Virus record (IMG/VR): IMGVR_UViG_2609459833_000016
Direction: 5' to 3' (one strand)
Length of the DNA: 38,883 bases
Origin: a virus
Lineage: Duplodnaviria; Heunggongvirae; Uroviricota; Caudoviricetes
Within the stretch, counting starts at the first letter, position 1, and each line of letters opens with the position of its first letter. Position numbers and translations under genes: made by a program. The notes under the pieces were generated by a model, which searched no databases, was not told the origin of the DNA, and was given only the letters and a program-made list of their open reading frames with translations. Shown piece after piece: positions 1,283-34,168 of the stretch.

Positions 1283-1634
1283 TGTGACTTGCGTGTGAGG
1301 GTGCTACTTTCGGCCTTACCTTGGCAACCGATTGACGGGGGATTGCTCCCCCGTCGCGGTTTCTTACGGTTTACACTGCAAGAACGCCGCAAATTCTGAC
1401 CACATGATGTTAAGTCTGAACTCACACGGCGAACGGTGTATCATCCAGACTGTCAACAACATGGTTAAGCATAAAATGCTCACGATGATCGTTTTTTGCG
1501 GCATAGCGCTTGCTCCTTTTTCAAAGAGGCGCTAACCTTCCACTTGCGAAGGTTAGATGGTTAGGGCCTCGGGTTAAACAAATGTTTGACTCGGGGCCTT
1601 TTCACATCCGGCCTTCAGGTAATCCTTCCAGCCG

Positions 1635-1937
1635 TCAGCCGAAAGGCACCCGCGCGTAATGTACAGTTTTTGACTGGGAGGCGCAATCGCCCAGGGGGAG
1701 GCTGAGTTGATCCCTTCCCCGGTGGCATGATTTGAAAGCTTCTGCGGGGACGACTCCCCGTTCTTCGGTGGGTTGCGGACGGCATACGGTTCTCACGACA
1801 AACTCGTGCGTCACAAAGGTGGCGCTGCATTCAATGTTGTTGCACTGGTAATATTTCTCCCTGATTGTTCCTGTATCGTTGGCGTCGCGGCTTGTTCTGG
1901 TGCGGGGACTTGCTCCGCAGTATGGGCAAGGATGCAT
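1635..1937 (-). CDS. ogr: Ogr/Delta-like zinc-finger late transcription activator (C-terminally extended relative to 72-aa P2 Ogr)
   Basis: N-terminus CPYCG...TSR...YYQCNNIECSATF matches the C2C2 zinc-finger pattern of P2 Ogr and 186 B; sits downstream of D as in P2. Confidence 0.7.
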   Translation of the reverse strand: MHPCPYCGASPRTRTSRDANDTGTIREKYYQCNNIECSATFVTHEFVVRTVCRPQPTEERGVVPAEAFKSCHRGRDQLSLPLGDCASQSKTVHYARVPFG

Positions 1938-1978
1938 GATGGTCCCCCTGGCTGAAACGGGGTGGGCTCGCGCTCATT

Positions 1979-3124
1979 CTAGCCAGTCGTGGCGCGCTCT
2001 GCTATCCAGTCTGCGATTTTTGCTTCCAGCTCCAGTCTGGTGGTGAAGCCGCTGTCGTCGATGACGTGCTCAATGCGCGAAATAATCCAGTCCTGATTGT
2101 CAATGTCGCTCTTGAACCCGGATACCGTGCCGTGCATCTCCGGATACAGGTCGGCGCGTCCGCGCGCCAGCGTGATGCTGAATTCTGCTGCACCCCGCTG
2201 AAGTTGCTGCCAGCGTGCGGCAGCTGCGCGACGCGCGGCTTCTTCGTTCGGGTAGGTTTTTCTCAGCACATACACATTGCCTTCTGCGCCTTCCATGTAT
2301 CCACCCTCCCGTGAACTGCTTTTCTCCGGCTTCTGTGTGGTTTTCGCGTTTCGCTTTTTCACGTTCACGGCCTTCTTCTGGCCGAACTTTAAATCCAGCC
2401 AGTAAGCTTTCACTCCGGTATAGGCTTTTCTGTCAGCAATGCGAAAGCGATGACTGTCGCCATCCGAGCGGGTCAGGGCGAATGAGGGGAGGGCGCGCCC
2501 GCTGGCTGTCACACCGCCACCCGGCAGAATGAACAGCAGGCACCCGTTTTTTACGGTGGTTATTGCACCCAGCATGTCAGCCATACGCGTGAGGAACGAG
2601 ATGTCGCTTTCCTCTGTCTGGTCTGCATGGTCGATTTCGATATTCATCAGCATTTCGCTGATTTGTGCTTTCAGTCCGTAACGGTGCGCGATGGCAGATA
2701 CCACACGCTCAACGGTCACGTCATGCCAGGAGACTTCGCGTTTCACGTTAAACTCTTCGCGAAAATCCGCACTGTTCGCGGATATGGTCAGCTTATCCGG
2801 CGGACCTTCGTGGCTCACTTCGTCCACCACAAACGCCCCCTTGCGAGTGAGGCTTTCACTTTTCCATCCCATCGCCAGCGATAATCGTGTTCCGCGCTCC
2901 GGAAGTACCCCCCCGCCGTCGGCGTCGTCGATTTCCAGTGTCACCCTGTCAGCCTCAAAACCCCTGTTGTCTGTCATGGTCAGGCTCATGATGCGCTGCG
3001 TGATGTTCTTCAGGCTGGCATCTTTCCCTTCCAGTGTGATAGTGAAGTCTGGCACCCTAACGGTATCTTCCGCTGCATCCAGTGCGCTGTTGATGTGATG
3101 TGTTACTGATTCAGTGATGCTCAT
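1979..3124 (-). CDS. D: Tail protein D (late control gene D family)
   Basis: 381-aa ORF with typical gpD length and sequence character; adjacent to ogr. Confidence 0.9.
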   Translation of the reverse strand: MSITESVTHHINSALDAAEDTVRVPDFTITLEGKDASLKNITQRIMSLTMTDNRGFEADRVTLEIDDADGGGVLPERGTRLSLAMGWKSESLTRKGAFVVDEVSHEGPPDKLTISANSADFREEFNVKREVSWHDVTVERVVSAIAHRYGLKAQISEMLMNIEIDHADQTEESDISFLTRMADMLGAITTVKNGCLLFILPGGGVTASGRALPSFALTRSDGDSHRFRIADRKAYTGVKAYWLDLKFGQKKAVNVKKRNAKTTQKPEKSSSREGGYMEGAEGNVYVLRKTYPNEEAARRAAAARWQQLQRGAAEFSITLARGRADLYPEMHGTVSGFKSDIDNQDWIISRIEHVIDDSGFTTRLELEAKIADWIAERATTG

Positions 3125-3184
3125 GATATCCCTCCCGTGTGCGTATCATCCCACGCGTACCTTGTCGTTTCTGTCCGGCTCTGT

Positions 3185-3202
3185 TGTAAAAAAATCCCCA
3201 CA
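3185..3202. promoter_or_regulatory. Ogr-type late promoter activator box (TGT-N12-ACA) between divergent D and FI
   Basis: TGTAAAAAAATCCCCACA read directly, about 65-75 bp from both the D and FI start codons. Confidence 0.45.
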
Positions 3203-3277
3203 GCCCGCATCAGGTGAGGGCTGTGCGCCAATGGTGGATTATTCAGGCGAGCATAAACACAACTGATGGTGAATCGT

Positions 3278-4471
3278 ATGGCTGAAAAACGATTTCACGG
3301 TGTGCGCGTCACGGAGAATACCGACCTTGTGACGGCCATTAATGACGTTGATTCCAGCGTCATTGGTATTGTTGCCGTTGCAGATGATGCGGATACCGGG
3401 CAGTTCCCCCTTAACAAGCCAGTGCTGATTACCCGTGTATCTTCTGTTCTGGGGAAGGCCGGGAAAGCGGGCACGCTTTATAAGGCCCTTAAAGCGATAT
3501 CTGACCAGGTCAGTACACGGGTGATTGTCGTTCGCGTGGAGGCGGCAAAAGAGGGGGCTGAGAATAAAACACAGGATCAACTGGTCATTGGTACCACGGA
3601 AGAAGACGGAAGCTACAGCGGTATGCAGGCGCTTCTGGTTGCCGAACAGATGGAAGGTATTGGTTACCGACCCCGCATTCTTGCCGCTCCGGGCCTTGAA
3701 TCGGATGCTGTCACGGCTGCACTGGTGACTGTTGCCGGAAAAATGCGCGCATTTGCGTATTCCGGCTGCCCTGGCTGCACAAAACCGTCCGATGCTATTG
3801 CGTTTCGTAAAAAGATTTCCGGTCGCGAAATCATGCTTCTGTGGCCTGATTTCATTGCGTTCAACCCGGTGTCCGGTAAAAACGAAACCTTCCCGGCTGC
3901 GGCGTATGCGTGCGGTCTTCGTGCCCGACTCGACCATGAACAGGGCTGGCATCGATCCCTTTCTAACATGCCTGTGAAAAATGTTCTTGGGGTGTCAGCG
4001 TCTGTTTCCTGGTCACTTCAGGATGAAAACAGCGATGCCAACACGCTGAACAATAGCGAGGTGACCACTCTTATTCACCAGGGCGACGGCTCCTTCCGTT
4101 TCTGGGGTAACCGTACACCGGATACGTCGGAATACATTTTTGAGGTGAGCGCCCGCACGGCGCAACAACTGGCTGACTCTATTGCGGAGGGGCAGCTTCA
4201 GGTGGTGGATTCGCCTCTGACACCTTCCAATGCGAAAGATGCTGTAAGTGCCATCAAGGCGAAACTGGATTCCCTGGTCACGGCCGGAAAACTCATTGGG
4301 GCGGAATGCTGGTTCGATATTGTCGACAACAATACAACCAGTCTTCGTCAGGGCATTGTGCGTATTCGCTACAAATACACGCCCGTACCACCGATGGAAT
4401 GTATGGAACTCTATCAGACGTTTACCGACGAGTTCTTTGGCTCTGCTTTTGCATCTCTTGGAGGTAGCTAA
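3278..4471 (+). CDS. FI: Tail sheath protein FI
   Basis: About 397-aa ORF with P2 FI-like N-terminus (HGVRV...FPLNKPVLIT); ORF track start is 3266, and 3278 has the better SD. Confidence 0.9.
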   Translation: MAEKRFHGVRVTENTDLVTAINDVDSSVIGIVAVADDADTGQFPLNKPVLITRVSSVLGKAGKAGTLYKALKAISDQVSTRVIVVRVEAAKEGAENKTQDQLVIGTTEEDGSYSGMQALLVAEQMEGIGYRPRILAAPGLESDAVTAALVTVAGKMRAFAYSGCPGCTKPSDAIAFRKKISGREIMLLWPDFIAFNPVSGKNETFPAAAYACGLRARLDHEQGWHRSLSNMPVKNVLGVSASVSWSLQDENSDANTLNNSEVTTLIHQGDGSFRFWGNRTPDTSEYIFEVSARTAQQLADSIAEGQLQVVDSPLTPSNAKDAVSAIKAKLDSLVTAGKLIGAECWFDIVDNNTTSLRQGIVRIRYKYTPVPPMECMELYQTFTDEFFGSAFASLGGS

Positions 4472-4983
4472 TGGCCGTACCCAAAAAACTTCGTGTGTTT
4501 ACCGTCTTTGTGGACGGTGACAACAAGCTGGGCAAGGTGACGTCTTTTACCCCGCCAAAACTGACCCGCAAAACAGAGTCGTATCGCGGGGCGGGTATGC
4601 CTGGCTCTGCGTCGGTGGATCTCGGTCTTGATGATGGTGCACTGGATCTCTCCTTTGCGGTTGGTGGCGTCGATCGTCACATCTTTGCCAAATACGCCGC
4701 CGGTATTGATGCCGTGCGTGTTCGCTTCTCGGGTGAATACTATTCCGAAGAGGGGATTGAGTACGTCGATATTGAAGCCCGTGGTCGCATTGTCGAAATC
4801 GACAAGGGCGAGGCCAAACAGGGTGAAGATACCGAACATACCTATGCGATGAAATGCACCTGGTACAAGCTCAGCGTTGATAACAGCGATGTTATTGAAA
4901 TCGACGTGCTGAACTTCATCTGGCGCATTGATGGTAAGGATGTTCTTCCTGACCGCACCCGCTCCATGCTGGGGCTTGGCTGA
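4471..4983 (+). CDS. FII: Tail tube protein FII
   Basis: 170-aa ORF directly after the sheath gene with stop/start overlap; P2 FII-like. Confidence 0.9.
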   Translation: MAVPKKLRVFTVFVDGDNKLGKVTSFTPPKLTRKTESYRGAGMPGSASVDLGLDDGALDLSFAVGGVDRHIFAKYAAGIDAVRVRFSGEYYSEEGIEYVDIEARGRIVEIDKGEAKQGEDTEHTYAMKCTWYKLSVDNSDVIEIDVLNFIWRIDGKDVLPDRTRSMLGLG

Positions 4984-5034
4984 TAGTTAAATCTGATAAC
5001 AGGGGCGGCGTCCTGTTGCCCCGGGAGAAAAATA

Positions 5035-5415
5035 ATGGATCAGACTGAAGAAAATATCGTGACGAATGACACAGATGCTGTGACGAATGGCGACACGGAA
5101 AACGCAGAGGCGATCGCAAATGACACGGTTAATCTCAGGGTTCCTGTTGTCTGCGGTAATAAGACGGTTTCCAGCGTGAAGATTGGGGCGCTTGCGCGTC
5201 AGGTGGGCTCGCTTCGAGGGATCCGCATGACGGACCTGTTCAACACCGATGTTGATGCTGCCGCCATTTTTCTGGAACGCGTAACTGAACCTCACCTCAG
5301 CCGCGCGGCACTTATGTCAATGTGCCCGGAAGACTTCTTTAAACTGTACGAGGTGGCAGTCGGTTTTTTGCTTCCCTCGTCAGCGAAGAAGGCGCAGGAG
5401 GCGGGCGGCGCGTAA
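5035..5415 (+). CDS. E: Tail assembly chaperone E
   Basis: 126-aa ORF between the tube and tape-measure genes; contains the T-TTT-TTG slippery site near its 3' end. Confidence 0.85.
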   Translation: MDQTEENIVTNDTDAVTNGDTENAEAIANDTVNLRVPVVCGNKTVSSVKIGALARQVGSLRGIRMTDLFNTDVDAAAIFLERVTEPHLSRAALMSMCPEDFFKLYEVAVGFLLPSSAKKAQEAGGA

Positions 5416-5570
5416 CGCTTCTTGCTTTTGATTACGTTGAAGATATTGTCGCTGATATAGCCGTTGTATTTCACTGGTCGCCCTCTGAAATCTTTGTGAT
5501 GACTCCCGGTGAACTGGTTGCCTGGCGAGAACGGGCGGCCGTCAGAACCGGGAATCATAACGATGAGTAA
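5035..5570 (+). CDS. E': Tail assembly chaperone E+E' fusion made by programmed -1 ribosomal frameshift at 5364-5370
   Basis: The -1 frame after the TTTTTTG heptamer stays open to TAA at 5568-5570, overlapping the tape-measure ATG at 5563, as in P2. Confidence 0.7.
5364..5370 (+). other. Programmed -1 frameshift slippery heptamer (T TTT TTG)
   Basis: GGTTTTTTG read directly in the E reading frame. Confidence 0.7.
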
Positions 5571-8394
5571 TAATCTCCAGATACGTGTAGCCCTTACTGC
5601 GGTCGACCGTCTCACTCAACCCGTCAGGCGCGCCCGGGAAATGACCGGCGCGCTTTCCGAATCTCTTTCCTCCACGCAGAACGCTCTTAAGTCACTCCAG
5701 CGAAGCAGTGATGCGTTTTCCCGTGCCCGCCAGCAGGTGACCTCGACTGAAAACAGTCTGAACGAGGCGCGTGCGCGACTTCAGCGCCTCCAGGAGGCCC
5801 AGCGTACAGGCACAACACTAACGGAAAAACAGCAGGAAGCTATCCGCTCGATGACTGTGAAGATTGATCGCCTTAATACGGTTTATTCCCTCCACAAATC
5901 CCGACTTAGCGAAGCCAGTCGCGAACTGGAATCTCACGGTATACGGGCGGACGGAAGTAACCGTGCGGTCGAGAGGGCAATCAGGCGGACGCAGGAATAC
6001 AACGATCAGCTCGAACGCCAGCGGGGCCAGCTTGCACGCGTCACGCAGGCGCAGCAACGCTATGACCGTGTTCAGGATATTGCCGGTAAGCTCAGTCAGC
6101 GCGGTGCTGTTGCCATGGCGGCTGGCAGTGCCGGTCTGTATGCTGCCGGTCGCGCGGTTGCACCTGTTGTTGAAGAGCAACGGCAGGGTGCGCTCATTGC
6201 GGCACAGAGTGGCGGCAGCGCAGAAGACGGCCAGCGCTACAGCCGTATGATTCAGAGCATCCGTGCGTCAGGTGCGGCCACGGATATCGCGATGATTTCG
6301 GAAGCAGCAGCTGCGGCGCAAAGCACGCTTGGCGCACTGGGTACCGTAGGGACTGAAGAACTGGAAAGGGTGACACGGCAGGCAATCGATCTTGCTCAGG
6401 TCACCGGCGGTAATGTGGCTGAACAGGTTCAGGCTGCTGGCATTATGCTGAAAAACGGGCTTGCCGCAAATGCAGGTGAGGCCGTCGACCTGATGGCGGC
6501 AGGGATGCAGAAAATGTCTGCCGAAATGCGCGGCGAACTTCCTGAAATTCTGCATGAGTATTCCACGCATTTCCGCAATATGGGGCTATCCGGCTCTGAA
6601 ACCATGACGCTGCTTGTCAGCATGGCGCAGCAGGGGAAATTCGCCCTGGATAAAACCGGCGATGCTGTCAAAGAATTCAGTATTCGCGGCTCGGATATGT
6701 CCAAATCCAGCGTTGAAGCCTATGAGCTGATTGGCCTTAACGCTGAAAGAATGTCGTCAGCGATCGCCAGTGGCGGCGCGGCCGCGCGTGAAGCGATGCG
6801 TCGCACCGCGTCAGGTCTGTTACAGATTCAGGATCCTGCAGAACGGGCCAATGCGGCGATAGCGCTGTTCGGCACACCCATTGAAGATCTGGCTGTTGAC
6901 CAGATCCCGGATTTTCTCCGGTCGCTTGCAACGGTATCTGACCGTATGGGGCTGGTTCAGGGAACCGCCCGGCGAATGGGGGATGTTCTGCGTGACAACC
7001 TCGGCGGCGACACCGATCGTCTGTCCGGCATTTTCTCCGGTATTCGCAGTGATGTTGTGTCGCTGGTTACTGATGATATCCGCGAGCTTGTACAGGCTGT
7101 TGCTTCTGTGGGTGAACGCTTCAGGTCGTGGGTTCAGGAAAACCCGCAGCTTGTACGCACGCTGACCCTTACCGTGGGTGGCGTGCTTGCGGCCACAACG
7201 GCCATTGGTGCGTTGTCTGTCGGAGGTGGGTTACTGACGGGGATTTTTGCAAAACTTCAGCTTGGCTCTGCGCTTCTTGGTGGCGGGCTGTCCTCGCTTA
7301 CAAACGGTGTTGGTGGTCTTGCTCTTCGCCTGTCCGGCCTTCCGGCACTGTGGGGGATGGTCTCCGGTGCGGTTTCTGTGCTGGGCGGGGTGCTTTCCGG
7401 TCTTCTCAGTCCTGTTGGTCTCGTGATTGCTGCTCTTGCCGGTGGGGCGCTGCTCATATGGCGTCACTGGGAACAGGTTAAGGCGTTCATGCTCGGCACA
7501 TTCCGGTCGCTGTGGGCTGGCCTTGCGCCTGTTCGTGAAAGTATTGCTCAGTTTGCTCCGTTGTTTGATCTGGTGTCGGGTGCGGTGTCCACGGTGTTTG
7601 ACTGGTTTACCCGGTTACTCACGCCTGTTCAGGCCAGCAACGAATCTCTTGAACGGTGTACGTCTGCGGGAGAAAGCTTCGGTCGTGTACTTAGTGGGGC
7701 GATATCGCTTGCGCTTACGCCGCTGAAGGCGCTGATGGATGGACTTGCCTGGGTACTGGAAAAGCTTGGCGTGCTGCCTGATGAAGCTGAAAGGGCGCGC
7801 CGGAAACTGGAGGATGCACAGCGGACTTCGTTTCTTCAGGGCAAGCTCTCCCTGCTTCAGGGGGATGTTAATGCCATTATCTCGCCCGCTAAGCCAGTTG
7901 ATGGCAATGATAAAGGTAATAATGGTGGCAAGCCTTCTGTCATAAACGACGGCACCAGTGGCGTTCTTCGCAGGCTCAAAGGTATCGAGGGTAATACGTC
8001 GGGTATGCTTCAGGAAGCCCGCAAGCGTATCGGTCCTGGCGATATCGTGTTTAAAAATCTCCCCCGTGCGCTGGCTGTTCGCGGGCAGTGGAATGAACCG
8101 ACTGTTGCACCCGGGCTTCCGCTTATGCCAGCGTTTTCGCCTGTGTCTCCGGCGGTTTCCCCGGATTCTTCCCGTCCTGTGGAGGTTAAGCGGTGGGATC
8201 CGGTGTCCCCGACACCCCGGGGGCCTTCGCGCTCTCCTGAACCGCCGTCTGTGTACGGTGGTGATATTCATGTTCACCTTCACAACGTGGTTACGCAGAA
8301 CCCTCGCGACCTTGCCAGAATGGTGGGGGAGGCGGTACGGGAAGAAATTCGCAGACAATCCGGCGGTATGAACAGTTTCCGCGATCGTGATTAG
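5563..8394 (+). CDS. T: Tail tape measure protein T
   Basis: About 943-aa ORF with coiled-coil N-terminus and Gly/Ala/Leu-rich hydrophobic segments, followed by U. Confidence 0.9.
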   Translation: MSNNLQIRVALTAVDRLTQPVRRAREMTGALSESLSSTQNALKSLQRSSDAFSRARQQVTSTENSLNEARARLQRLQEAQRTGTTLTEKQQEAIRSMTVKIDRLNTVYSLHKSRLSEASRELESHGIRADGSNRAVERAIRRTQEYNDQLERQRGQLARVTQAQQRYDRVQDIAGKLSQRGAVAMAAGSAGLYAAGRAVAPVVEEQRQGALIAAQSGGSAEDGQRYSRMIQSIRASGAATDIAMISEAAAAAQSTLGALGTVGTEELERVTRQAIDLAQVTGGNVAEQVQAAGIMLKNGLAANAGEAVDLMAAGMQKMSAEMRGELPEILHEYSTHFRNMGLSGSETMTLLVSMAQQGKFALDKTGDAVKEFSIRGSDMSKSSVEAYELIGLNAERMSSAIASGGAAAREAMRRTASGLLQIQDPAERANAAIALFGTPIEDLAVDQIPDFLRSLATVSDRMGLVQGTARRMGDVLRDNLGGDTDRLSGIFSGIRSDVVSLVTDDIRELVQAVASVGERFRSWVQENPQLVRTLTLTVGGVLAATTAIGALSVGGGLLTGIFAKLQLGSALLGGGLSSLTNGVGGLALRLSGLPALWGMVSGAVSVLGGVLSGLLSPVGLVIAALAGGALLIWRHWEQVKAFMLGTFRSLWAGLAPVRESIAQFAPLFDLVSGAVSTVFDWFTRLLTPVQASNESLERCTSAGESFGRVLSGAISLALTPLKALMDGLAWVLEKLGVLPDEAERARRKLEDAQRTSFLQGKLSLLQGDVNAIISPAKPVDGNDKGNNGGKPSVINDGTSGVLRRLKGIEGNTSGMLQEARKRIGPGDIVFKNLPRALAVRGQWNEPTVAPGLPLMPAFSPVSPAVSPDSSRPVEVKRWDPVSPTPRGPSRSPEPPSVYGGDIHVHLHNVVTQNPRDLARMVGEAVREEIRRQSGGMNSFRDRD

Positions 8395-8399
8395 GAGTG

Positions 8400-8870
8400 A
8401 TGGTTATGATGATGATTTACGGCATGTTTGTTTTTCAGTTAAGCACACTGCCACACCAACAAATACAACAGTCCCGTAACTGGAGGCATGTAAAGAACGA
8501 GCGAATCAACCGCTCAGCCAGCTGGCAGTATATCGGCGCGGGTGACGATACCATCACGCTTTCGGATTTGCTCTACCCGGAAATTACGGGCGGTGAAGTC
8601 TCCCTGACCGCACTGACCAGCCAGGCTTACGTCGGGCGACCATGGCCGCTGATTGATGGGGTAGGGCAGATTTACGGGATGTATGTCATTACCGGGCTTA
8701 ACACCACCCGCTCTGAACTTGATCGCTATGGTCGGGCAAGAAAGATTGAGTTTACTGTCACTTTTGAGCGTGTGGATGAAGATCTGCGTGAACGTCTTCA
8801 GTCCTCGTCGCTTGGTGATCTTGCGAATAACGTCAAAGGTGCCCTGAATAATCTGTCCATTCCGGTTTAA
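8400..8870 (+). CDS. U: Tail protein U
   Basis: N-terminus MMM..GMFVFQLSTLP and central PWPLIDG...GMYVI match the P2 gpU pattern; ORF track start 8397 is a GTG. Confidence 0.85.
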   Translation: MVMMMIYGMFVFQLSTLPHQQIQQSRNWRHVKNERINRSASWQYIGAGDDTITLSDLLYPEITGGEVSLTALTSQAYVGRPWPLIDGVGQIYGMYVITGLNTTRSELDRYGRARKIEFTVTFERVDEDLRERLQSSSLGDLANNVKGALNNLSIPV

Positions 8871-8876
8871 ATAATA

Positions 8877-8901
8877 ACGCCCTGGTGTCAGGGCGTTTTT
8901 G
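8877..8901. terminator. Bidirectional rho-independent terminator between convergent U and G
   Basis: ACGCCCTG-GTGT-CAGGGCGT hairpin with T-runs on both strands. Confidence 0.5.
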
Positions 8902-8905
8902 CTGT

Positions 8906-9514
8906 TCATCTTTCGGTGGCGGGTTCTTCCGTTGTGGGCCAGCCCACAACGTAACGCTGAATGGCCTCCGCATCCTGAAGTTCTGCAATCTCTTTTTTCA
9001 TGTTGCGCTGGCGCACATGAATTTCCATTCCCTTCGCGAACATTGCCTGTTGCGCGGCTTCACTCAGCGCAATCAGTTCTTCCGCAGTCATGGGGACGTC
9101 GTTGTTGTCTGCGTCTGTCCAGAAAAACTTCTCCGGGAGATTGCCTTCTTTTGCTGCGATAACTGATGGGCCAAGGCGATCCTGTGTTTCCTTTCCATAA
9201 TCCCAGTTACGGCCATTAAAGCTGAAAATATAACTGGCTGATTCCATTCTGTTCCGCCAGGCGTTGATCCCGGCGGTTTTGAGTTCTCTGGCTTTTTCCG
9301 GGCTGATGGATGGCTGTACATGTTCTGCAATTTCACCGGCCTCTCCTTTCTGACAAGCGGCATAAATATCCCGCCCGTATGCTTCGGTATCGCTGGCTGT
9401 TGCAGTGAAAGGAACCGCCTGCTCAATGTGCTCAAACTTCACCATGCAATTGACAGCAGTGTGATCTTTATCTGCCCATTGCGGATTGCTTATTTTTTCC
9501 ACATTCATGTTCAT
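8906..9514 (-). CDS. G: Tail fiber assembly (chaperone) protein G
   Basis: ORF immediately downstream of the tail fiber gene with an AGGAG RBS; start chosen at the internal MNMNVEK. Confidence 0.75.
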   Translation of the reverse strand: MNMNVEKISNPQWADKDHTAVNCMVKFEHIEQAVPFTATASDTEAYGRDIYAACQKGEAGEIAEHVQPSISPEKARELKTAGINAWRNRMESASYIFSFNGRNWDYGKETQDRLGPSVIAAKEGNLPEKFFWTDADNNDVPMTAEELIALSEAAQQAMFAKGMEIHVRQRNMKKEIAELQDAEAIQRYVVGWPTTEEPATER

Positions 9515-9524
9515 CTCCTGTCTG

Positions 9525-11126
9525 TCAGTATGCGCGCTGGAACAGCCCGATGCCTTCATTGTCATTTGTCGACGTAATTTCATTACACACCATCCATGAG
9601 CCCGGAACTGAGGATAGGTTGCCGTCAATGCCATCGGTGTTAGCTTTCATATAGTTCCCGCTTGCATCTTTGATTATGGCGCATCGCTTAAGGCGTGAAC
9701 CCTGTACAGTTTCTCCTGGCTGATAGGTTTTGTTGAGGTCGGTTACATACGGGGTTAGTGCGGCAATAATGTATGTTCCGATGCTGTAAATTTCCCCGGG
9801 TACCAGCCTTCCGGTTGGCCCTTGTGGTCCGGTTTCACCTGTCGGGCCCTGTCTTCCTGTTTCTCCCTGCAAACCTCGTGGTCCGGTGTTCCCCTGCGGC
9901 CCCGTCGGTCCCGTCGGTCCCGTCGGCCCCGTCGGCCCGGCAGGTCCTTGTCGACCCGCTGGCCCCTCGGCCCCCAGTTCCTTCCAGTCCGTCCATGGAC
10001 CATTTCCGGTGAAATTACCGTTGACAGCCCTGACAAACTTCCTGATGGGGTTCCATGTAGTGTATTCCTGTTGACAGAAACCCCAGGCTCCCATTTTCAC
10101 GGACAGGTATCCCGCCTGTTCAACGGGGTAGTGCATGGCGGTGGTTGCATCTTTATTGGCCGACTGATAGTAATCCCCGTGGTGTTCTGGTTTTCCCAGT
10201 GTATTGAGATCAACGGTCAGCGCGGTATATTTCGCCTTCTGTGCTCCGCTTTGTGTTGACTGTTGAAGTTGTTGTACGGTCTGGTTTGTGGCATTGATTT
10301 GTTGCTCCAGTGTTGAGGCTTTCTCACTTGCTGCCTGTGCACTCTGTTTAGCCTGTTCAGCCAGTTTTTCGGCTTCAGTGGCTTTCTGCATGGTGAGCTG
10401 GACTGCCTTTGGTGTTGCAGCGGCGTTTTCGGCGGCGCTGCCCGTTTCGCTGCTCAGCCGGACGATGCCTTTCTGGCTGGTCGTGGCGTCAGTGACTGAA
10501 GATTTTTCATTAATCATTCCTTTCAGCGTTTTGATGGCCTTAGAGGTTGCGGCTGTTTCTTCGCTGTCACTGTCGGTGGCACTGCTCAGTTGCACAAATC
10601 CCTTTGTGCTTGTGGATGCAGACTGGTGGGTGCCGCTTTTTTCATGTTCTTTGATGGCCTGATCCAGAGCGGCTTTTGTGACCATGACAACTGACTGATC
10701 CAGTTTAATATTCAGCGCAGAAATATTACTCAGGAGAATAACCATCCTGAATACCTGCTCCCGACCTGAACCTTCCTCCAGCTTCGGTTTGTAACCTTCT
10801 GCTACGTTGCCAACAGCAATCAGGGCACCTTCATCATCGAATAACCCAATCTCCCTCACCCAGAAGCCGCCCTGGTCAGCGGGAATAACCAGCTCTGCGG
10901 TGACAAAGCTTTCATTCTCCGCATCCTGTGTGATGCTGGAGATATTCCCTTCCCAGACTTTTTTCACCAGTTGTTTTTGCCCTTCTGATGGCTCCACTTC
11001 CTGGCCGTTGCCGTCGCCCACCTGCATCTTTGCCAGGGTGACTTTTTTTCCACCGGGCTTCAGGGCTTCGGCCAGCTTCCGGCGGCCCTCAGTGGTGATA
11101 ATGGTTTTGTATTTCTGTGTCATGGT
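9525..11126 (-). CDS. H: Tail fiber protein H with collagen-like Gly-X-Y repeat region
   Basis: N-terminus [20 protein letters not shown]...[21 protein letters not shown] matches the conserved gpH N-terminal domain; C-terminal part is divergent. Confidence 0.85.
9808..9976 (-). repeat. Collagen-like (Gly-X-Y)n coding repeat within tail fiber gene H, including a 4x 9-bp tandem repeat (about 9901-9936)
   Basis: Translation [52 protein letters not shown]; the plus strand shows CCCGTCGGT/CCCGTCGGC repeated four times. Confidence 0.7.
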
Positions 11127-11839
11127 TCCTCCGGTGCCGGTTTTACGATGGTCGTTGTGCCGTCGTATGTTGTTCCGGCTATACAGATAGCGGCTTGTGC
11201 GGCGCACGGTGACGGTATCTCCGTATCCGGTTTAACCCGGGTTATGTCACTGTCGTAAATCGCGCCAGCACAATAAATTTCTCCTCCGGTAATGCAGGGG
11301 TTCGGCAGTGTTGCGTCCGGATATACCTGTATGATGTCTCCGCTATGACTCACTGCCCCGGTAAAGACTTCCCCTTTTGCAATGTATGTCAGCCTCAGTG
11401 CTTTCAGGTGACGGCTTACCGGCTTCGCCAGCGCAATCATGCGCTCCATTTCCTGATAGGTCGCCTCTGTCAGGGCTGCATGTGTAACATCGATGTTGAG
11501 ACGAAAACTGCCTGGAGGGTCGCCGTTTTCCCACCACTCTGTAATGCTCAGCAGCGCGCCGAACGGGGCAATAGCTCTTCTCATGGCGCTGATGGTCCCC
11601 TTATGACGGTGAACCATCCACGACTCGCGTATAACGTCCCGGCGAGTCTCTTCCGTCCATGCCTTATCCCATCTGTCCACTGAAAGCGTCCATGCGAGCC
11701 ATGGCAGCAGTACTTCAGGGCATTCGTCCGCATTCCACAGGGTGTTAAGTTTCACCGGCAGCTGGCTGATTTTTTCCCCGGAGCGATCAACGGTTTTCAG
11801 AAAAACACTGGCAGACGGCGGAAGCACCGTTTTACTCAT
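11120..11839 (-). CDS. I: Baseplate protein I with a C-terminal extension carrying a duplicated Cys-containing motif
   Basis: N-terminal 170 aa match the gpI pattern ([15 protein letters not shown]...[13 protein letters not shown]...[18 protein letters not shown]); extra C-terminal 60 aa. Confidence 0.8.
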
Positions 11840-12728
11840 CGGTCCCCCCGGCGCGAATCTCTGTGGCGGAGCATCGCGCCGCCTGTGTTTCGCTGATCAC
11901 CAGATCCTTCGCTGGTTGTGTTAACTCCACCCGCTGAACTCCGGGCACATGCAGGGCCGCCATGATGGCTGAACGGGCAACGTCACGACCAATTCTTCGC
12001 TGCTCTGCCAGCCACGCCTCCAGTTGTGCCCGTGCGGCCTGAAGTATGGGTTCTGATTCCGGCCCCGGGTAAAAATAGAGTGTCGCATCAATCTTGTAGC
12101 TGATGATTTCCGCGCTTTTCACCGTCAGTCTGTCCGCCACGGGGCGAACTGTTTCGTCGTTCAGTACGGCTTTCACTTCGTTAATCAGTGCTTCGTTCGC
12201 CGTTCCGTCTCCGTCGGCTGAAAGGAGCGCAACCACAACTTCCGCCGGTGCCGGGCTGGTTGCTCTGGCATCTGCCACTTTTCCGCTTGCGCTGCGTGCA
12301 AAATACTCATATGAGCCGGAAGGCCCGGCAACACTCATCCCTTCAAAGGCGCTCTGTATGCGCATCCGGAACGCGGCGTCACTTTCCATTACCGCCGGTG
12401 TGGTCTCCGTTGCTTCGGTGATAACCAGGCGCTGCACATTCATGTTTACACCCAGATTGTCAAGATCGCTTCCTGATGAATGACTCAGCATACAGGCCGC
12501 TGCGCCATCATTGATACGCTGCCGCAGTAACAGCTCCCGCCATGCCATAGCCTGAGCGATGATGTTCAGTGGTTCGGACTCCAGTTCAAGGGCTGCCGCC
12601 ACTTCATCGCGCATGGCTTCCGGAAAGACGCTAATCATGAATGTCTTTGTCTGTGCCAGAATCACTTCATAATCCAGCGATTCAATGATCGCCGGTTGCG
12701 GCAGCTGGGATAAATCAATTGTCGGCAT
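11832..12728 (-). CDS. J: Baseplate assembly protein J
   Basis: N-terminus MPTIDLSQLPQP... typical of gpJ; overlaps W and I as in P2. Confidence 0.85.
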   Translation of the reverse strand: MPTIDLSQLPQPAIIESLDYEVILAQTKTFMISVFPEAMRDEVAAALELESEPLNIIAQAMAWRELLLRQRINDGAAACMLSHSSGSDLDNLGVNMNVQRLVITEATETTPAVMESDAAFRMRIQSAFEGMSVAGPSGSYEYFARSASGKVADARATSPAPAEVVVALLSADGDGTANEALINEVKAVLNDETVRPVADRLTVKSAEIISYKIDATLYFYPGPESEPILQAARAQLEAWLAEQRRIGRDVARSAIMAALHVPGVQRVELTQPAKDLVISETQAARCSATEIRAGGTDE

Positions 12729-15161: not shown

Positions 15162-17132
15162 TTATGCCGGTGGCTGATTTACGACAACGCTCAGGCTGTC
15201 AATCAGTACGGTATAGGTCGGCCGATACGTGATATCGGTCACGCGTAACGTGTCGTTGGTAACATCGGCTTTTGATGTGGAAAGCATGAACGGTTTTCCG
15301 TCCACGCCATCCAGAACCGGTGTTACCTGGGTGCTGTTGTTTCCCGCAAAACGAAACGCTATGGTGTGCCAGTTGTTATTGAACTGACCAAAGGTTCCCA
15401 GTTGTTCGTTTGGCGTTTTGTGATACATCAGATTCAGGTTTGCGCTGTCTGTCTGAAGAAAGAATGAGAGCAATAAATTATTTGGATCTGCCCCCAGTAA
15501 TTTCACATCCTGCGGTAATGCTGATGTTTTCCAGTACATCGCCATTGCGTACTGGTCTTTTTTCAGCTCACCCTCGATTTTGAATCGGCAACTTACAGTC
15601 CCGCCATTTTTCAGAAGGTCAGCACCATTACCGGCCTTATGCTCCAGATACCAGGTATTGCCTTCCTGTTTGGTCAGTTTCAGGGCTTTTTTCCCTGTTG
15701 CTTCCTCATCACCGATCAGCATGTCTTTCAGTTGTTTTGGTGTGTTGGCCCCGTTTTTGCCTTCGCTCAGCGTCCAGCCCTGGCTTTCCAGTTCAGGAGA
15801 TGATGCCAGCAGACTCATGAGCGTGACCGGCCCCGGTCTGACTGCCGGTTGTTCTGCTTCCGGTGAAGATGGCTTACTGATGCCGCCCGGTGCATCCTGT
15901 GATGGTTTTGCCACGCGTTCCGGCTCTGTACCCGCAATAAATGGCAGCGTGCGGCCGACGTTAAGCAGGATTGCTGACGCCATGCGATCGGCAATAATGC
16001 CCCGGCGGGCCCATGAGCTGAAGTGCGTTCCACGCAGATGGCTTACCCAGTTTCCGCTACTGCGGGATGCGGCACCGTAATAACCCGCTTCCGCAATATC
16101 CGGATCTTCTGTCGGCTCGTTTGTTGGGGTGTTTTTCCCGTACTCATCCGTAACAAAAGGCACAAAAACAATATTCTTCTCAGTGCTGTTTTTGTATCCG
16201 CCATACACGGTTGCGTACTGTGCTTCGTAGGTTTTTTTCCAGTGGTAGGTGGTATCTCCACAAATCCACGGCACGCTTTCAGGGTTGCCCTGGTTGCACT
16301 GCTTCGCAACATCGGCCAGGTCAGCCCGGAACTGCTTCACCATGGCTGTGAAAAGATCTTTATGCTGTGCGGCGTTTTGTTCTTTCTCAAGATCTGCCTC
16401 GCCCTGTGTCCAGCAGACGGCCAGCAGGACGTTTTTCGGATTTTTCGCCAGCGCTGCTTTTGTGCGGCTGATTAAATCCTTGTACAGCGGCGTGTTCGTT
16501 CCCCAGCGGCAGGATTTTTCAGTTGCGCCGCCGATCTCGCTGAATTGCCCCGCATCACCGGTTGTAAAGCCGGAACCGCCACGGCTGCATGGGACCAGAA
16601 GGATCCCCGCATTTGCCGGGATAAATGGCAGCAGGCGCTTCGCAATGTGCAATCCCTGACTCACACAGCCATACTGACCTTTGTTCAGGTCGGCTTTCGG
16701 GTGGTTGTACTGGCTCATATCCTGCACGTCATGCAGGCAGTGATCCGCCAGAATGATGTCGTTATAGGCACAAGCTTTTCCGCTCGGGGTTACGGTGCTG
16801 CGGCGTGCCAGCTGGCGAATGCGCGAATCGGGTTTATCGTAACTTTCCGGGAGAGGTAACCCCTCACCGTATGCCATAGAGTTGGACTGACCAGCGCTCA
16901 CCACAACGTAATACCACTCCGGTTCGCTGTCGGATGTCGGGGTGATAATGGTGCCTCCCTGGTCATCACTGCCTGAAACCATAGCCTGCATGAGATACCA
17001 GGGGACTCCCGGCTCTGATGCAATACCGGCATTACCGAGAAGTTCCCAGCCTTCCTGTAACCGCTTGTTAACTTTTTCAGCGAATTCTGCGCGGTTGGTG
17101 GCAGTAATCAGTTCAAAGTGTTTTTTGCTCAT
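15162..17132 (-). CDS. NanS-p-like prophage esterase: N-terminal DUF1737-like domain + SGNH/SASA-type carbohydrate O-acetylesterase domain + C-terminal lectin-like domain (656 aa)
   Basis: MSKKHFELITATNRAEFAEKVNKRLQEGWELLG N-terminus; GQSNSMAYGEG nucleophile motif; about 250-aa beta-rich C-terminal domain; located after the lysis genes. Confidence 0.7.
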   Translation of the reverse strand: MSKKHFELITATNRAEFAEKVNKRLQEGWELLGNAGIASEPGVPWYLMQAMVSGSDDQGGTIITPTSDSEPEWYYVVVSAGQSNSMAYGEGLPLPESYDKPDSRIRQLARRSTVTPSGKACAYNDIILADHCLHDVQDMSQYNHPKADLNKGQYGCVSQGLHIAKRLLPFIPANAGILLVPCSRGGSGFTTGDAGQFSEIGGATEKSCRWGTNTPLYKDLISRTKAALAKNPKNVLLAVCWTQGEADLEKEQNAAQHKDLFTAMVKQFRADLADVAKQCNQGNPESVPWICGDTTYHWKKTYEAQYATVYGGYKNSTEKNIVFVPFVTDEYGKNTPTNEPTEDPDIAEAGYYGAASRSSGNWVSHLRGTHFSSWARRGIIADRMASAILLNVGRTLPFIAGTEPERVAKPSQDAPGGISKPSSPEAEQPAVRPGPVTLMSLLASSPELESQGWTLSEGKNGANTPKQLKDMLIGDEEATGKKALKLTKQEGNTWYLEHKAGNGADLLKNGGTVSCRFKIEGELKKDQYAMAMYWKTSALPQDVKLLGADPNNLLLSFFLQTDSANLNLMYHKTPNEQLGTFGQFNNNWHTIAFRFAGNNSTQVTPVLDGVDGKPFMLSTSKADVTNDTLRVTDITYRPTYTVLIDSLSVVVNQPPA

Positions 17133-22178: not shown

Positions 22179-22196
22179 TGTAAGAGCGTGGCGACA
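22179..22196. promoter_or_regulatory. Ogr-type late promoter activator box (TGT-N12-ACA) in the divergent O/P intergenic region
   Basis: TGTAAGAGCGTGGCGACA read directly, about 70-85 bp from both start codons. Confidence 0.5.
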
Positions 22197-30011: not shown

Positions 30012-30424
30012 GCGTCGTACTCCCCGCCAGTGACCTCCTGAAACGCCGCGCGGTACAGCACGAGAAGGCGCTGGTATTCACCGATAAAGTCTTCTGCGGT
30101 GTATATGCCTTTCACGGCCACGCTGTGGGTTGTCATTTCCAGAACCAGTGCCATCTCTGACGATGACCAGCTGATGGCGGTACTGTCGGTGCCGTTGATG
30201 TGAAATAAACCAAAGCCATCACCGTCACCTTTCACGTCCACGCGGTAACGACCGTCAACGGTGAAGGAGAAATCCCCGTATGTGGTGATGCTGCGGGCGG
30301 CCTGTTTACAGGCGCGGCGGTAGTAGTCGTGCCAGTTGTTCAGGCGGGAAGCCAGCAGGGGATCCACCGCCCACATCCAGTTAAAAAAGTCCTGAATATC
30401 TGAAAGTCCCTTAACGCTCTTCAT
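30008..30424 (-). CDS. Hypothetical protein (138 aa), coupled to A
   Basis: ORF overlapping the A start by 4 nt; position matches P2 orf80-83. Confidence 0.55.
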   Translation of the reverse strand: MKSVKGLSDIQDFFNWMWAVDPLLASRLNNWHDYYRRACKQAARSITTYGDFSFTVDGRYRVDVKGDGDGFGLFHINGTDSTAISWSSSEMALVLEMTTHSVAVKGIYTAEDFIGEYQRLLVLYRAAFQEVTGGEYDA

Positions 30425-30492
30425 GAGAACCTCCGGTAACAGACGTGCGGAAGCCTCCCGCGCACGGGTGCGGGATGGCTTCAGGATGTGGT

Positions 30493-30714
30493 TTATCGGT
30501 GCTGGTTGATGAGGCTTTGCAGTTCTGCCAGATCTTCGGCGAGATAGCTGAAGACAGCAGCGCAGTAACGGTTTGATAGTGCGTGCGTGCGCTCATGCAG
30601 CATGTTGATATGCATGATTTGCGCGACGCGTGTTGCGCGGAAAAGTCTGCGGTTGATTTCAGTCTGGATGTGACGACGCTCAGCGCGGGCGCGCTGTTGC
30701 TTGCGGTTTGCCAT
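30493..30714 (-). CDS. Hypothetical basic protein (73 aa)
   Basis: ORF with Arg-rich N-terminus. Confidence 0.4.
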   Translation of the reverse strand: MANRKQQRARAERRHIQTEINRRLFRATRVAQIMHINMLHERTHALSNRYCAAVFSYLAEDLAELQSLINQHR

Positions 30715-31097
30715 GGTGTGGCCTCTTCGTTTGTGAATTTTGAAAACTCACCAACCAGAGGTGGAAAACTCAGGGTGGCGAGACGTACAGGGTTTCCACA
30801 ACCGGCAAACGAAGAAACCGGCCCGACCGAAGTCGGCCCTGTACGCCCCGCCATAATTCTGACGCGAAAAAGACGTGGCGATACAGTACGCACAAAAAAA
30901 CCGCTGGCGCGGCTGTGCGCTTCGTTTGTCAGCGGGGTGGAAATCCCGGCACCCGTTTTATGAGGTGCAGCGGAAATGTAACCCGACACGACGAGCGCTG
31001 GCAAGCGGTTTTTGTGTTGCGTGCTGATGTGGTTAGAATGTTGCGAATTAATATCACCTGGCAACTGGTGATTGTCTGCATACGCGGGGTGTTTCTG

Positions 31098-31562
31098 ATG
31101 AGTGATAAGCTCCCTTCTGATTACGAAATTCTTTTTGACCTGTGGTACAGCTACTGGCTTGAACACATGACAAGCCTTCTCCACCGTCGCGCTTCCTTGG
31201 TTCTGAGGATTAGCGCTTTCCTTGCGATTGTTGCCGCATTCATTTTTTGCGACAGCGCAACGTTTGTTTTCGCCAGTGTGGTGCTCTTTCTGGTGTGGCA
31301 GGTCATGGCTGCCTCTCTTTCTATCAGAGCTGAAAAGGCTGAATGGCAGGCGCTTAGCTATCAAAGACTGATTAGCCAGCGCCACGTGCTCACCCCGGAA
31401 TGCATGATTGCGCGCCTCTCCTTTGTTGAGGAAAGTGACAGCCCCGTGATGGAGTGCATGATCAACCTTGCCTGGAATAAAGCCTGTGAGACGGTTGGTA
31501 GCTCTTCGCGCAATCATGTTTCGATCTCCGGTCGGTTACTCAGTCGCCTGTGTGGCTTTTGA
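31098..31562 (+). CDS. Hypothetical 2-TM membrane protein (about 154 aa) on the strand opposite to the early operon
   Basis: Start at the internal ATG of ORF 30915..31562; hydrophobic helices ISAFLAIVAAFIFC and FVFASVVLFLVWQVMAASL; promoter-like TTGCGT/TAGAAT upstream. Confidence 0.5.
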   Translation: MSDKLPSDYEILFDLWYSYWLEHMTSLLHRRASLVLRISAFLAIVAAFIFCDSATFVFASVVLFLVWQVMAASLSIRAEKAEWQALSYQRLISQRHVLTPECMIARLSFVEESDSPVMECMINLAWNKACETVGSSSRNHVSISGRLLSRLCGF

Positions 31563-33577: not shown

Positions 33578-34168
33578 TCATATGTTCAGGAATGGTGTTG
33601 TGAAGCGCTGCCAGATTTCTGACACGACCTTTGCCTGGTAAACGGCATCGCCCAGTGCAGTGTGAGCAATAGCCTCCTTTCCTGATCTGCCTGGCATTTT
33701 CCATCCAGTTGATTCAGCCATGGCGATAAGCGGGCGCATACAGCGCTCGTTCCAGTAGCACCAGGGGATGCTTTTTTCTCCGGCTGTGCGTGTTATGGCG
33801 GATTTCAGGATCGGGAAATCGAAGGATGCGCCTTTGCACCATATGGTCAGTGAATTGCCCGGGCTTTCGTCATGCATATTGCGTGAAATGAACGCCAGAA
33901 ATTCGGTTACTGCCGCAAGCTCTGTTCCCTCTGCGTTGCGCAGGCAGGATCTGGCCTCCACGGATTGTCCGGCCCACCATACAGCGGTGGCTGCATTGAC
34001 GGTTCCGCCGTTGCGTTCTGAATCCACCGGGTCGATGAATTTCTCAAACTGCTTGCCCAGCTTTCCGGTGAACGGGTCGAAAAACACCGCCCCAATCGCG
34101 AATATGGCTGCGCCCGGTCCGTTACCCAGTGTTTCGGTGTCAATCATGAGATGGTTCATTATGCGCAC
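33578..34168 (-). CDS. DEDD-family 3'-5' exonuclease (DnaQ-like)
   Basis: Exo I motif MIDTETLG and Exo III-like HTALGDAVYQ. Confidence 0.75.
   Translation of the reverse strand: MRIMNHLMIDTETLGNGPGAAIFAIGAVFFDPFTGKLGKQFEKFIDPVDSERNGGTVNAATAVWWAGQSVEARSCLRNAEGTELAAVTEFLAFISRNMHDESPGNSLTIWCKGASFDFPILKSAITRTAGEKSIPWCYWNERCMRPLIAMAESTGWKMPGRSGKEAIAHTALGDAVYQAKVVSEIWQRFTTPFLNI

Follow-up and report, generated by a model that had tools for sequence, protein, structure and literature searches.

An inverted tail module with a predicted bidirectional late promoter is the normal gene order in the P88/phiT5282H/SEN4 branch of P2-related phages

Genes and junctions of the tail module

The stretch of DNA analyzed here (the window; 38,883 nucleotides, IMG/VR record IMGVR_UViG_2609459833_000016) holds a P2-family prophage in an E. 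coli context, with leuZ adjoining. Its tail genes are distributed over both strands. FI-FII-E/E'-T-U lie on the plus strand (3278-8870), and ogr and D (1635-3124), on one side, and G-H-I-J-W-V (from 8906), on the other, lie on the minus strand. The genes and intervals of the region are as follows:

1635-1937, minus strand: ogr homologue, 100 aa, Ogr/Delta zinc-finger late activator (Pfam Ogr_Delta, E 1.5e-15)
1979-3124, minus strand: gene D (late control D/baseplate hub), 381 aa (phrog_52, E 1e-152)
3125-3277: 153-bp spacer between the divergent D and FI, a proposed late promoter acting in both directions
3278-4471, plus strand: FI, tail sheath (phrog_23, E 3e-113; start at 3278 as in RefSeq)
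4471-4983, plus strand: FII, tail tube (phrog_55, E 9e-57; RefSeq "phage major tail tube protein")
5035-5570, plus strand: E and E+E', tail assembly chaperones (phrog_103; Phage_TAC_7)
5563-8394, plus strand: T, tape measure protein (phrog_28, E 7e-120; coordinates from RefSeq)
8406-8870, plus strand: U, tail protein (phrog_76, E 7e-68; start at 8406 as in RefSeq)
8876-8897: bidirectional intrinsic-terminator-like hairpin, stem of 9 bp (6 of them GC), with a T-rich tail on each strand
8906-9508, minus strand: gene in the G position, fibre-assembly-like (Pfam DUF4376, E 3e-20; RefSeq annotation)
9525-11114, minus strand: H, tail fibre (phrog_988, phrog_381; RefSeq annotation)

The gene identities and strands had been proposed in an earlier reading made from the letters alone (the sequence-only reading), and they agree with the PHROG and Pfam matches and with the RefSeq annotation of an identical E. 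coli copy, in which 1635-1937 is labeled "ogr/Delta-like zinc finger family protein". The features expected of a Peduoviridae late tail module are present, that is, homologues of FI, FII, E/E' with a -1 frameshift, T, U, D and Ogr/Delta, and tblastn against P2 gave 25-54% identity over all genes. The Ogr homologue is 46% identical to P2 Ogr across the zinc finger (E 8e-16), and D is 48% identical to P2 D and 72-76% identical to the D proteins of P88-type loci; for the FI sheath the values are 46% to P2 FI and 73% to the P88 sheath. The frameshift site, T_TTT_TTG, is at 5364-5370. E alone stops at 5415, and the -1 frame that yields E+E' is open through to a TAA at 5568-5570. On the far side of the module, the gene in the G position resembles fibre and assembly genes of lambdoid phages (86-90% identity at the DNA level), and I, J, W and V come after H on the same strand, based on the gene order in tblastn. 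The order is not that of P2 and 186, as the strand of FI-U is opposite to that of G and D. The P2/186 type, with G, FI...U, D and ogr on one strand and U next to D, is found in Peduovirus, Eganvirus and most other Peduoviridae. An Rfam scan gave no match within the region of the inverted module.

At the distal junction U and G converge with 35 bp between them, and the hairpin at 8876-8897 is flanked by the stop codons of U (8868-8870) and G (8906-8908). The stem was found on both strands, as the sequence-only reading had described, and a GC-rich stem-loop with a T-run on each strand between convergent genes is predicted to act as an intrinsic terminator in both directions. Many relatives have a strong GC-rich hairpin just past U, although unrelated in sequence. 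The same reading attributed the absence of the Z/fun cargo site to the inversion. Z/fun is indeed absent from the short U-G interval of the window, but its loss is not a general consequence of the inversion, because in P88 the interval between U and G is occupied by a DNA invertase and alternative fibre genes.

At the proximal junction D and FI are divergent, also as first described, and the length given for the gap (140 bp) needs revision. This is because FI most likely starts at 3278, based on homology and the RefSeq annotation, rather than at 3266, so the gap measures 153 bp.

Distribution and origin of the inverted order

A megablast search of positions 1500-12000 against 50,697 phage records returned no match over D-FI-U, and only fibre-tip matches to lambdoid phages. 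As the nucleotide search found no homologue of the tail module, protein-level searches were required. All 54 loci with a sheath 53-73% identical to that of the window, including P88, phiT5282H and SEN4, have the same inverted layout, and all 33 more distant loci, P2 among them, are collinear. Sorted by FI identity, the loci at 54% or above were D(-)|FI-U(+)|H..V(-) in 51 of 51 cases and those at 45-48%, P2 included, were collinear in 31 of 31. The 51 inverted loci come from Salmonella, Citrobacter, Edwardsiella, Enterobacter, Klebsiella, Kosakonia, Pantoea, Erwinia, Brenneria, Serratia, Symbiopectobacterium, Aeromonas, Morganella, Photorhabdus and Xenorhabdus, together with phages P88 and phiT5282H. 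As to the direction of the change, U and D are adjacent in 390/535 phage records, including those of distant Burkholderia, Ralstonia, Mannheimia, Stenotrophomonas and Xanthomonas phages; on layouts of the P88/phiT5282H/SEN4 type a chimeric U+D query was covered over its D part only.

In a neighbor-joining tree of FI and D, with Burkholderia AP3 and a Mannheimia phage as the root, the loci with the inverted order were monophyletic in 100/100 bootstraps, with the window inside the group. That they form one clade means that one old inversion accounts for them. Judged from these layouts and the tree, the inverted tail module is the normal, anciently fixed order of the P88/phiT5282H/SEN4 branch of P2-related phages, to which the window belongs by both its layout and its tree position. 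The rarity implied by the sequence-only reading did not hold up: P2 and 186, with which it compared the locus, are not its closest relatives, and in those relatives this order is the norm.

Two other origins of the layout were considered, an assembly or scaffolding error that misoriented a 5.7-kb block in this one sequence, and a segment that flipped recently or still does so, by a site-specific or repeat-mediated route, with both orientations present in populations. The chance of the former is negligible. We found nothing in its support, the sole prior suspicion having been the difference from P2 and 186, and at least 10 complete E. coli genomes match the 8.2 kb over both junctions as a single collinear block, with identities of 99.0-99.9% (coverage of the 8.2 kb reaches 80% or more in 16 records). 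The same order occurs in 54 other loci and phage genomes, and both junctions have conserved signals appropriate to the orientation. The view that the arrangement evolved and has clean junctions is supported by independent genomes and by these signals. An invertible segment is also very improbable, if marginally less so. A DNA invertase does lie between U and G in relatives such as P88, and in this group fibre segments often undergo inversion (PMC13280938), but the P88 invertase adjoins duplicated fibre and assembly genes rather than the FI-U block, and the window has no invertase gene in or beside the module. Among the longest 25 of 90 inverted-repeat pairs, none joined the two junctions (3125-3277 and 8871-8905), and the opposite orientation was seen in 0/54 related loci and in none of the E. 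coli copies listed. The locus differs from segments of the Gin/Cin/Hin type in having no junction-pairing inverted repeat among those 25 pairs, no invertase in or beside the module and a single orientation in the loci and genomes above. A recent site-specific or IS-mediated flip was rejected on the lack of such a repeat among those pairs.

The D-FI spacer

The spacer between D and FI contains a single symmetric TGT-N12-ACA box at exactly the position noted earlier. The elements considered here, and a similar site elsewhere in the window, are listed below:

3145-3150, minus strand: -10-like hexamer GATGAT of the proposed D promoter, read from the sequence; predicted start ~3138, 55.5 nt from the box centre
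3185-3202: palindromic TGT-N12-ACA dyad (Ogr-type activator box), exact match, centre 3193.5
3237-3242, plus strand: -10-like hexamer GATTAT of pF, read from the sequence; predicted start ~3249, 55.5 nt from the box centre
22179-22196: second perfect TGT-N12-ACA, exact motif match, in the divergent O/P region; the phage's own pP/pO-type site

Over the whole window the motif occurs no more often than expected by chance (7 vs. 9.1), so the weight of the dyad at 3185-3202 comes from its position and conservation and not from its frequency. From its centre, the distance to the ATG is 69.5 nt for D and 84.5 nt for FI. The box occurs at the same position in the inverted loci, where it is perfect in 27/52, has one mismatch in 22/52 and two in 3/52; it is therefore perfect or one mismatch off in 49/52. 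In the sequences displayed, the one-mismatch boxes have an AGA half-site in place of ACA. The dyad is often imperfect outside the window, with about half of the relatives having AGA for ACA in one half-site and P2 having CCA.

The distance from the box to the FI ATG is 74.5-88.5 nt across the inverted loci, compared to 79.5 nt for P2 pF by the same measure. On the other side, D starts in relatives were re-called with a check for a ribosome-binding site, and in enterobacterial loci with an assignable ATG and ribosome-binding site the box centre is 64.5-71.5 nt from the D ATG. A wider spread of 36-93 nt, obtained from extrapolated tblastn starts, was misleading and was discarded after this re-calling. 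In Xenorhabdus and Photorhabdus loci the D start is farther from the box (78-86 nt), and less certain.

The two hexamers mirror each other, with their proximal edges both 43.5 nt from the box centre. Their clade consensus sequences are GAntAT for pF and, on the D sense strand, nAtcAT for the D side, in which A2, A5 and T6 are conserved. Both halves of the spacer are conserved over 50 distinct relatives, in contrast to the side upstream of pF in P2-type loci, where no conservation was seen; the D-proximal half, ATGATTTCACGCGCGCG, is strongly conserved in the inverted clade only. The predicted D leader is only ~14 nt. A dyad between divergent late genes is what characterizes the shared activator sites of the P2 pP/pO type. 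The P2 record has a single annotated activator site for divergent pO and pP, with starts 55.5 nt either side, and Smp131 has been described with one 18-nt site for PP'/PO' (PMC3931495). From the dyad in the O/P region of the window, the distances are 81.5 nt to the O ATG and 76.5 nt to the P start, which is likely at 22264. Since the Ogr box is a dyad, it is proposed to serve two divergent late promoters and, from its sequence and by analogy with these sites, the spacer most likely acts as one bidirectional Ogr-dependent late promoter for D and FI.

An alternative is that the inversion is ancient and clade-typical, but that the box acts on FI only and D has its own promoter within the conserved CGCGCGCG/TGAAATCAT element, for instance one of the sigma-70 type or one dependent on another activator. 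Nothing in P2 late promoters corresponds to the D-proximal block, and this block could represent a regulatory site of its own; the dyad is imperfect in half of the relatives, and D starts are placed differently in Xenorhabdus and Photorhabdus. We nevertheless regard an independent D promoter as unlikely, while giving it appreciable weight. A sigma-70 scan detected no sigma-70-like promoter in 3125-3277, and the near-constant spacing of the D ATG from the box over many genera would not be needed if D made no use of the box. In addition, the D-side hexamer is exactly mirror-symmetric to that of FI and, in P2, D is an essential late tail gene under Ogr control within the F operon (P2 record; PMC3931495).

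We propose the following history for the module. In the common ancestor of the P88/phiT5282H/SEN4 branch, a 5.7-kb segment of the pF operon, from the pF activator box through FI-FII-E/E'-T-U, would have inverted in place, with breakpoints in the G/pF and U/D intervals, and the inverted order has been inherited since. The inversion would have severed D from the ancestral operon (FI...U-D in P2) and left it back-to-back with FI beside the pF box. Two late promoters facing away from each other would now depend on the dyad, each starting ~55 nt from its centre, the start at ~3249 driving FI-U and that at ~3138 driving D and possibly ogr, on the model of the single annotated P2 site acting on pP and pO. 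What were once the ends of the V-G operon and the FI-U segment now converge, and the hairpin that they share could terminate transcription in both directions. This account as a whole, an ancient clade-typical inversion with a shared bidirectional Ogr-dependent promoter, has our considerable confidence. We also lean, less firmly, toward the idea that the palindromic nature of the Ogr box made the ancestral inversion viable, the opposite face of this activator site having "rescued" D. That would have created a second bidirectional late promoter like pP/pO and uncoupled the dosage of D (and of ogr, by read-through) from that of FI-U.

Significance and comparison with known phages

The layout itself is present in annotated, published genomes (P88, phiSM, phiT5282H and SEN4) and in dozens of enterobacterial prophages and tailocin-like loci, and so has little value as a discovery. 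The D|FI divergence is a marker that cleanly splits one monophyletic Peduoviridae branch from P2/186-type phages. It could aid prophage typing and avert false alarms of "rearrangement" when P2 is the sole reference. The orientation of FI-U is not discussed in papers on P88, phiSM, SEN4 and the regulatory phylogeny of P2-like phages, nor in those on dickeyocin, Xenorhabdus tailocins and Burkholderia P2-like phages; inversions, where those papers mention any, concern fibre segments. The open-access literature searched contained no experimental precedent for a D promoter in such a layout and no description for Peduoviridae of operon splitting by inversion with promoter capture. To our knowledge, such a split with capture via a symmetric site is undescribed in this family. 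If confirmed, the clade would represent a natural, datable case in which inversion split an operon and a promoter was captured at once through a symmetric activator site. The evolutionary lesson would be that a dyad-symmetric activator site permits an operon to be split in this way with late control kept. For the engineering of P2-type tailocins or transducing particles of this branch, D would need its own late promoter.

The closest likeness in layout is to P88, Xuanwuvirus P884B11 and Citrobacter phage phiSM (Peduoviridae, Xuanwuvirus), which have an identical D(-)|FI FII E E' T U(+)|fibre genes(-) order and, also like the window, a hok/gef gene at the D-side end. Identity between P88 and the window is 73% for the sheath, 73% for D and 78% for U, within a range of 31-78% over the proteins. 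The P88 box is at the same position with an AGA half-site, one mismatch, whereas that of the window is perfect, and the P88 U|G junction is occupied by the invertase and alternative fibres where the window has 35 bp. The ICTV genus criterion is ~70% genome-wide nucleotide identity. With no nucleotide match to P88 over the tail module (D-FI-U) and protein identities in the range above, the window is not of the same genus, Xuanwuvirus, by DNA identity. Enterobacter phage phiT5282H (Novemvirus) and Salmonella phage SEN4 (Senquatrovirus) have the same inverted layout with ogr adjoining D. Both are more distant than P88 (sheath identity to the window 67% and 53%, respectively) and differ from the window in fibre genes and cargo, the SEN4 fibre operon having a macro-domain gene.

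The F operon of P2 (Peduovirus) has the same genes, the E/E' frameshift and an Ogr homologue, with a box-FI distance of 79.5 nt vs. 84.5 nt in the window. Unlike the window, P2 has G, Z/fun, FI...U, D and ogr co-directional, and D ends the F operon, overlapping U by 1 nt; relative to P2, the window has FI-U inverted, D alone with ogr and no Z/fun. The D/FI spacer has its nearest parallel in P2 pP/pO and Smp131 PP'/PO', where one dyad lies between divergent late operons with starts ~55.5 nt either side (PMC3931495). The predicted geometry in the window is the same as that of P2 pP/pO, and the genes predicted to be served are D and FI instead of P and O.

Gene order and integrity of the tail region

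The left end of the window is E. coli chromosome, followed by a P2-family prophage with the features below. The RefSeq annotation of one E. coli copy agrees with this gene layout.

Features of the window
Left end, E. coli chromosomal pgsA, before the tRNA genes
701-1003, tRNA-Gly, tRNA-Cys and tRNA-Leu, after pgsA
1364-1504, minus, hok/gef
1635-1937, minus, ogr (Ogr/Delta zinc-finger gene, 100 aa)
1979-3124, minus, D
3150-3145, minus, D-side hexamer GATGAT
3185-3202, TGT-N12-ACA dyad, exact match, centre 3193.5
3237-3242, plus, FI-side hexamer GATTAT
3278-4471, plus, FI (sheath)
4471-4983, plus, FII (tube)
5035-5415, plus, E
5364-5370, plus, -1 slip site T_TTT_TTG within E, extending E' to 5570
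5563-8394, plus, T (tape measure)
8406-8870, plus, U
8876-8897, hairpin, 9-bp stem with 6 GC pairs, terminator-like on both strands by scan
8906-9508, minus, DUF4376 gene in the G position
9525-11114, minus, H (fibre)
After H, minus, I, J, W, V, S and R

The sequence-only reading had placed the tail genes FI-FII-E/E'-T-U on the plus strand between minus-strand flanks, and these gene identities and strands were borne out; three minor details needed correcting. The start of FI is most likely 3278, not 3266, and the D-FI spacer is 153 bp, not 140 bp; ogr, rightly placed beside D on the minus strand, is now pinned to the 100-aa ORF. The single dyad between D and FI lies exactly at 3185-3202, and the hairpin proposed as a bidirectional terminator sits between the stops of the convergent U (8868-8870) and G (8906-8908) and is predicted to be terminator-like in both directions.

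An assembly error as the source of this order is excluded. Among the matches listed, 10 complete E. coli genomes carry positions 1500-9700, 8.2 kb that include both junctions, unbroken and collinear at 99.0-99.9% identity, and 16 records cover at least 80% of this stretch; the earlier view that the order is evolved therefore holds. It is also very unlikely that the module is an active invertible segment. The proposed search for short inverted repeats found none pairing the two junctions among the longest 25 of 90 repeat pairs, no invertase lies near the module in the window, and a single orientation was seen in 54 loci and the E. coli genomes listed.

Several other genes of the prophage were noted. 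The hok/gef-family toxin gene sits beside tRNA-Leu (leuZ) at the end of the prophage, and P88 has a MokW-like hok gene at the corresponding position. A 656-aa ORF (15162-17132, minus) with DUF1737, SASA (sialate O-acetylesterase-like) and DUF6645 domains is cargo between R and the lysis genes of this P2-family prophage; it is similar to NanS-p esterases, which Stx and lambdoid prophages carry. In the early region, a C4 antisense RNA (30771-30858, minus, 82 bits) and an isrK Hfq-binding RNA (30894-30968, minus, 64 bits), both at Rfam gathering level, fall within a mechanically called 368-aa ORF (30411-31517); these matches suggest a P1-type C4/antirepressor-like control element. The early region also includes an ORF (33578-34168, minus) in which an Rv2179c-like 3'-5' exoribonuclease domain is matched over its full length (E 1e-50).

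Distribution and origin of the inverted layout

By sheath protein, the closest phage records are Xuanwuvirus P884B11, P88 and phiSM (73% identity), followed by phiT5282H (67%) and several Klebsiella phages (62-64%). The annotations of P88 and phiT5282H give D (minus), FI-FII-E-E'-T-U (plus) and fibre genes (minus), the order of the window, and SEN4 also has the inverted layout. To survey the layout more widely, 80 genomic loci were gathered with a sheath-alignment query and the window's D, FI, FII, E, T, U, H, I, J, W and V proteins were mapped onto them by tblastn. Where FI was at least 54% identical to that of the window, 51 of 51 loci were inverted, including phages P88 and phiT5282H and loci from Salmonella, Citrobacter, Edwardsiella, Enterobacter, Klebsiella, Kosakonia, Pantoea, Mixta, Erwinia, Brenneria, Pectobacterium, Serratia, Symbiopectobacterium, Yokenella, Aeromonas, Morganella, Photorhabdus and Xenorhabdus; where FI was 45-48% identical, all 31 loci, P2 among them, were collinear. 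The inverted layout is thus universal among the closest loci, the outcome that the sequence-only reading had itself named as refuting its finding.

Published and annotated genomes from at least three ICTV genera already show the layout. The prophage is one more member of the P88/phiT5282H/SEN4 branch and lies outside Xuanwuvirus by nucleotide identity. Accessible papers on phages with this layout or on P2-like relatives contained no comment on it; a specialist using P88, not P2, as reference would find it no surprise.

Adjacency of U and D was probed with a chimeric U+D protein query; of 535 matching phage records, 390 covered at least 80% of it at a single place. Since U and D are also adjacent in distant Burkholderia, Ralstonia, Mannheimia, Stenotrophomonas, Achromobacter and Xanthomonas phages, the collinear U-D order is the ancestral state; in the 60-80% identity band the query matches D alone, and the records have two matching places. 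A neighbour-joining tree was computed on joined FI and D for 82 distinct loci, with Burkholderia AP3 and a Mannheimia phage as its root, and in it the 49 inverted loci formed one clade (100/100 bootstraps). A single old inversion, inherited since, is the parsimonious account.

The Photorhabdus and Xenorhabdus loci (L040-L050 of the survey) combine the inverted D/FI-U layout with a perfect dyad and a different D-side spacing; tailocin clusters for xenorhabdicin or photorhabdicin may be among them. Their U/G junction corresponds to the hypervariable fibre region described in such loci (PMC13280938).

Content of the U/G junction

A strong GC-rich hairpin directly follows U in many relatives, its sequence not conserved, and junction content varies. 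The Z/fun cargo site is indeed absent from the window, where the junction is 35 bp, but not as a general consequence of inversion, to which it had been ascribed: the P88 junction carries a DNA invertase and alternative fibre genes, so inversion does not as a rule abolish a Z/fun-type cargo position, which is merely empty here. Beyond the junction, 8986-9894 (the DUF4376 gene and the 3' end of H) has 86-90% DNA identity to lambdoid fibre and fibre-assembly genes (PhiR12 series, P-EibC/D/E), and the remainder of the tail module had no nucleotide match in the phage collection searched. This pattern points to fibre-tip exchange across phage families.

A probable shared activator site between D and FI

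From the box centre it is 69.5 nt to the D ATG and 84.5 nt to the FI ATG. Across all 52 inverted loci the box was perfect in 27; 22 loci had one mismatch, which gave an AGA half-site in those displayed, and 3 had two. Its distance to the FI ATG was 74.5-88.5 nt (P2, measured likewise, 79.5 nt). After D starts were re-called with a ribosome-binding-site check, the D ATG was 64.5-71.5 nt from the centre in enterobacterial loci with an assignable start, and 78-86 nt in Xenorhabdus and Photorhabdus. When 50 distinct spacers of the inverted clade were anchored on the box, a GAntAT hexamer was conserved on the FI side and the D side was strongly conserved (ATGATTTCACGCGCGCG; nAtcAT on the D sense strand); in 31 P2-type loci the sequence upstream of pF, the P2 F-operon promoter, was essentially without conservation. 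Both window hexamers are exactly 43.5 nt from the centre, which predicts transcription starts near 3138 and 3249, 55.5 nt to either side.

Conservation and geometry make it most likely that the spacer is a bidirectional Ogr-dependent late promoter. The serious alternative is that D is driven from a separate promoter within the conserved D-proximal block, independent of the box, yet the constant spacing between box and D and the mirrored positions of the hexamers argue against it. As to how a bidirectional promoter would have arisen, D in P2 is the final F-operon gene, overlapping U by 1 base, and pF has its activator site centred ~55 nt upstream of the start. If FI-U and pF were inverted together, D would lose its upstream operon and end up beside the pF box. 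We lean towards promoter capture through the symmetric activator site, which would have made the inversion viable; if true, this is modestly interesting only.

Four late promoters of P2 depend on Ogr and share the consensus TGT-N12-ACA (PMC3931495), and the window encodes an Ogr homologue whose zinc finger has 46% identity to that of P2 Ogr. The only other perfect intergenic dyad in the window lies at 22179-22196 in the O/P divergent region. Its distance to the O ATG is 81.5 nt and to the likely start of P 76.5 nt, as in P2 pP/pO; that start is probably the ATG at 22264, not 22219, as P2 gpP aligns only from residue 23 onwards. The P2 GenBank record gives a single "activator binding site; pO, pP promoters" and puts the starts at 3016 and 3127; a dyad centre placed at 3071.5 puts either start 55.5 nt away. 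The D-FI spacer has this same geometry, and the box shared by D and FI would be another instance of the pP/pO site type.
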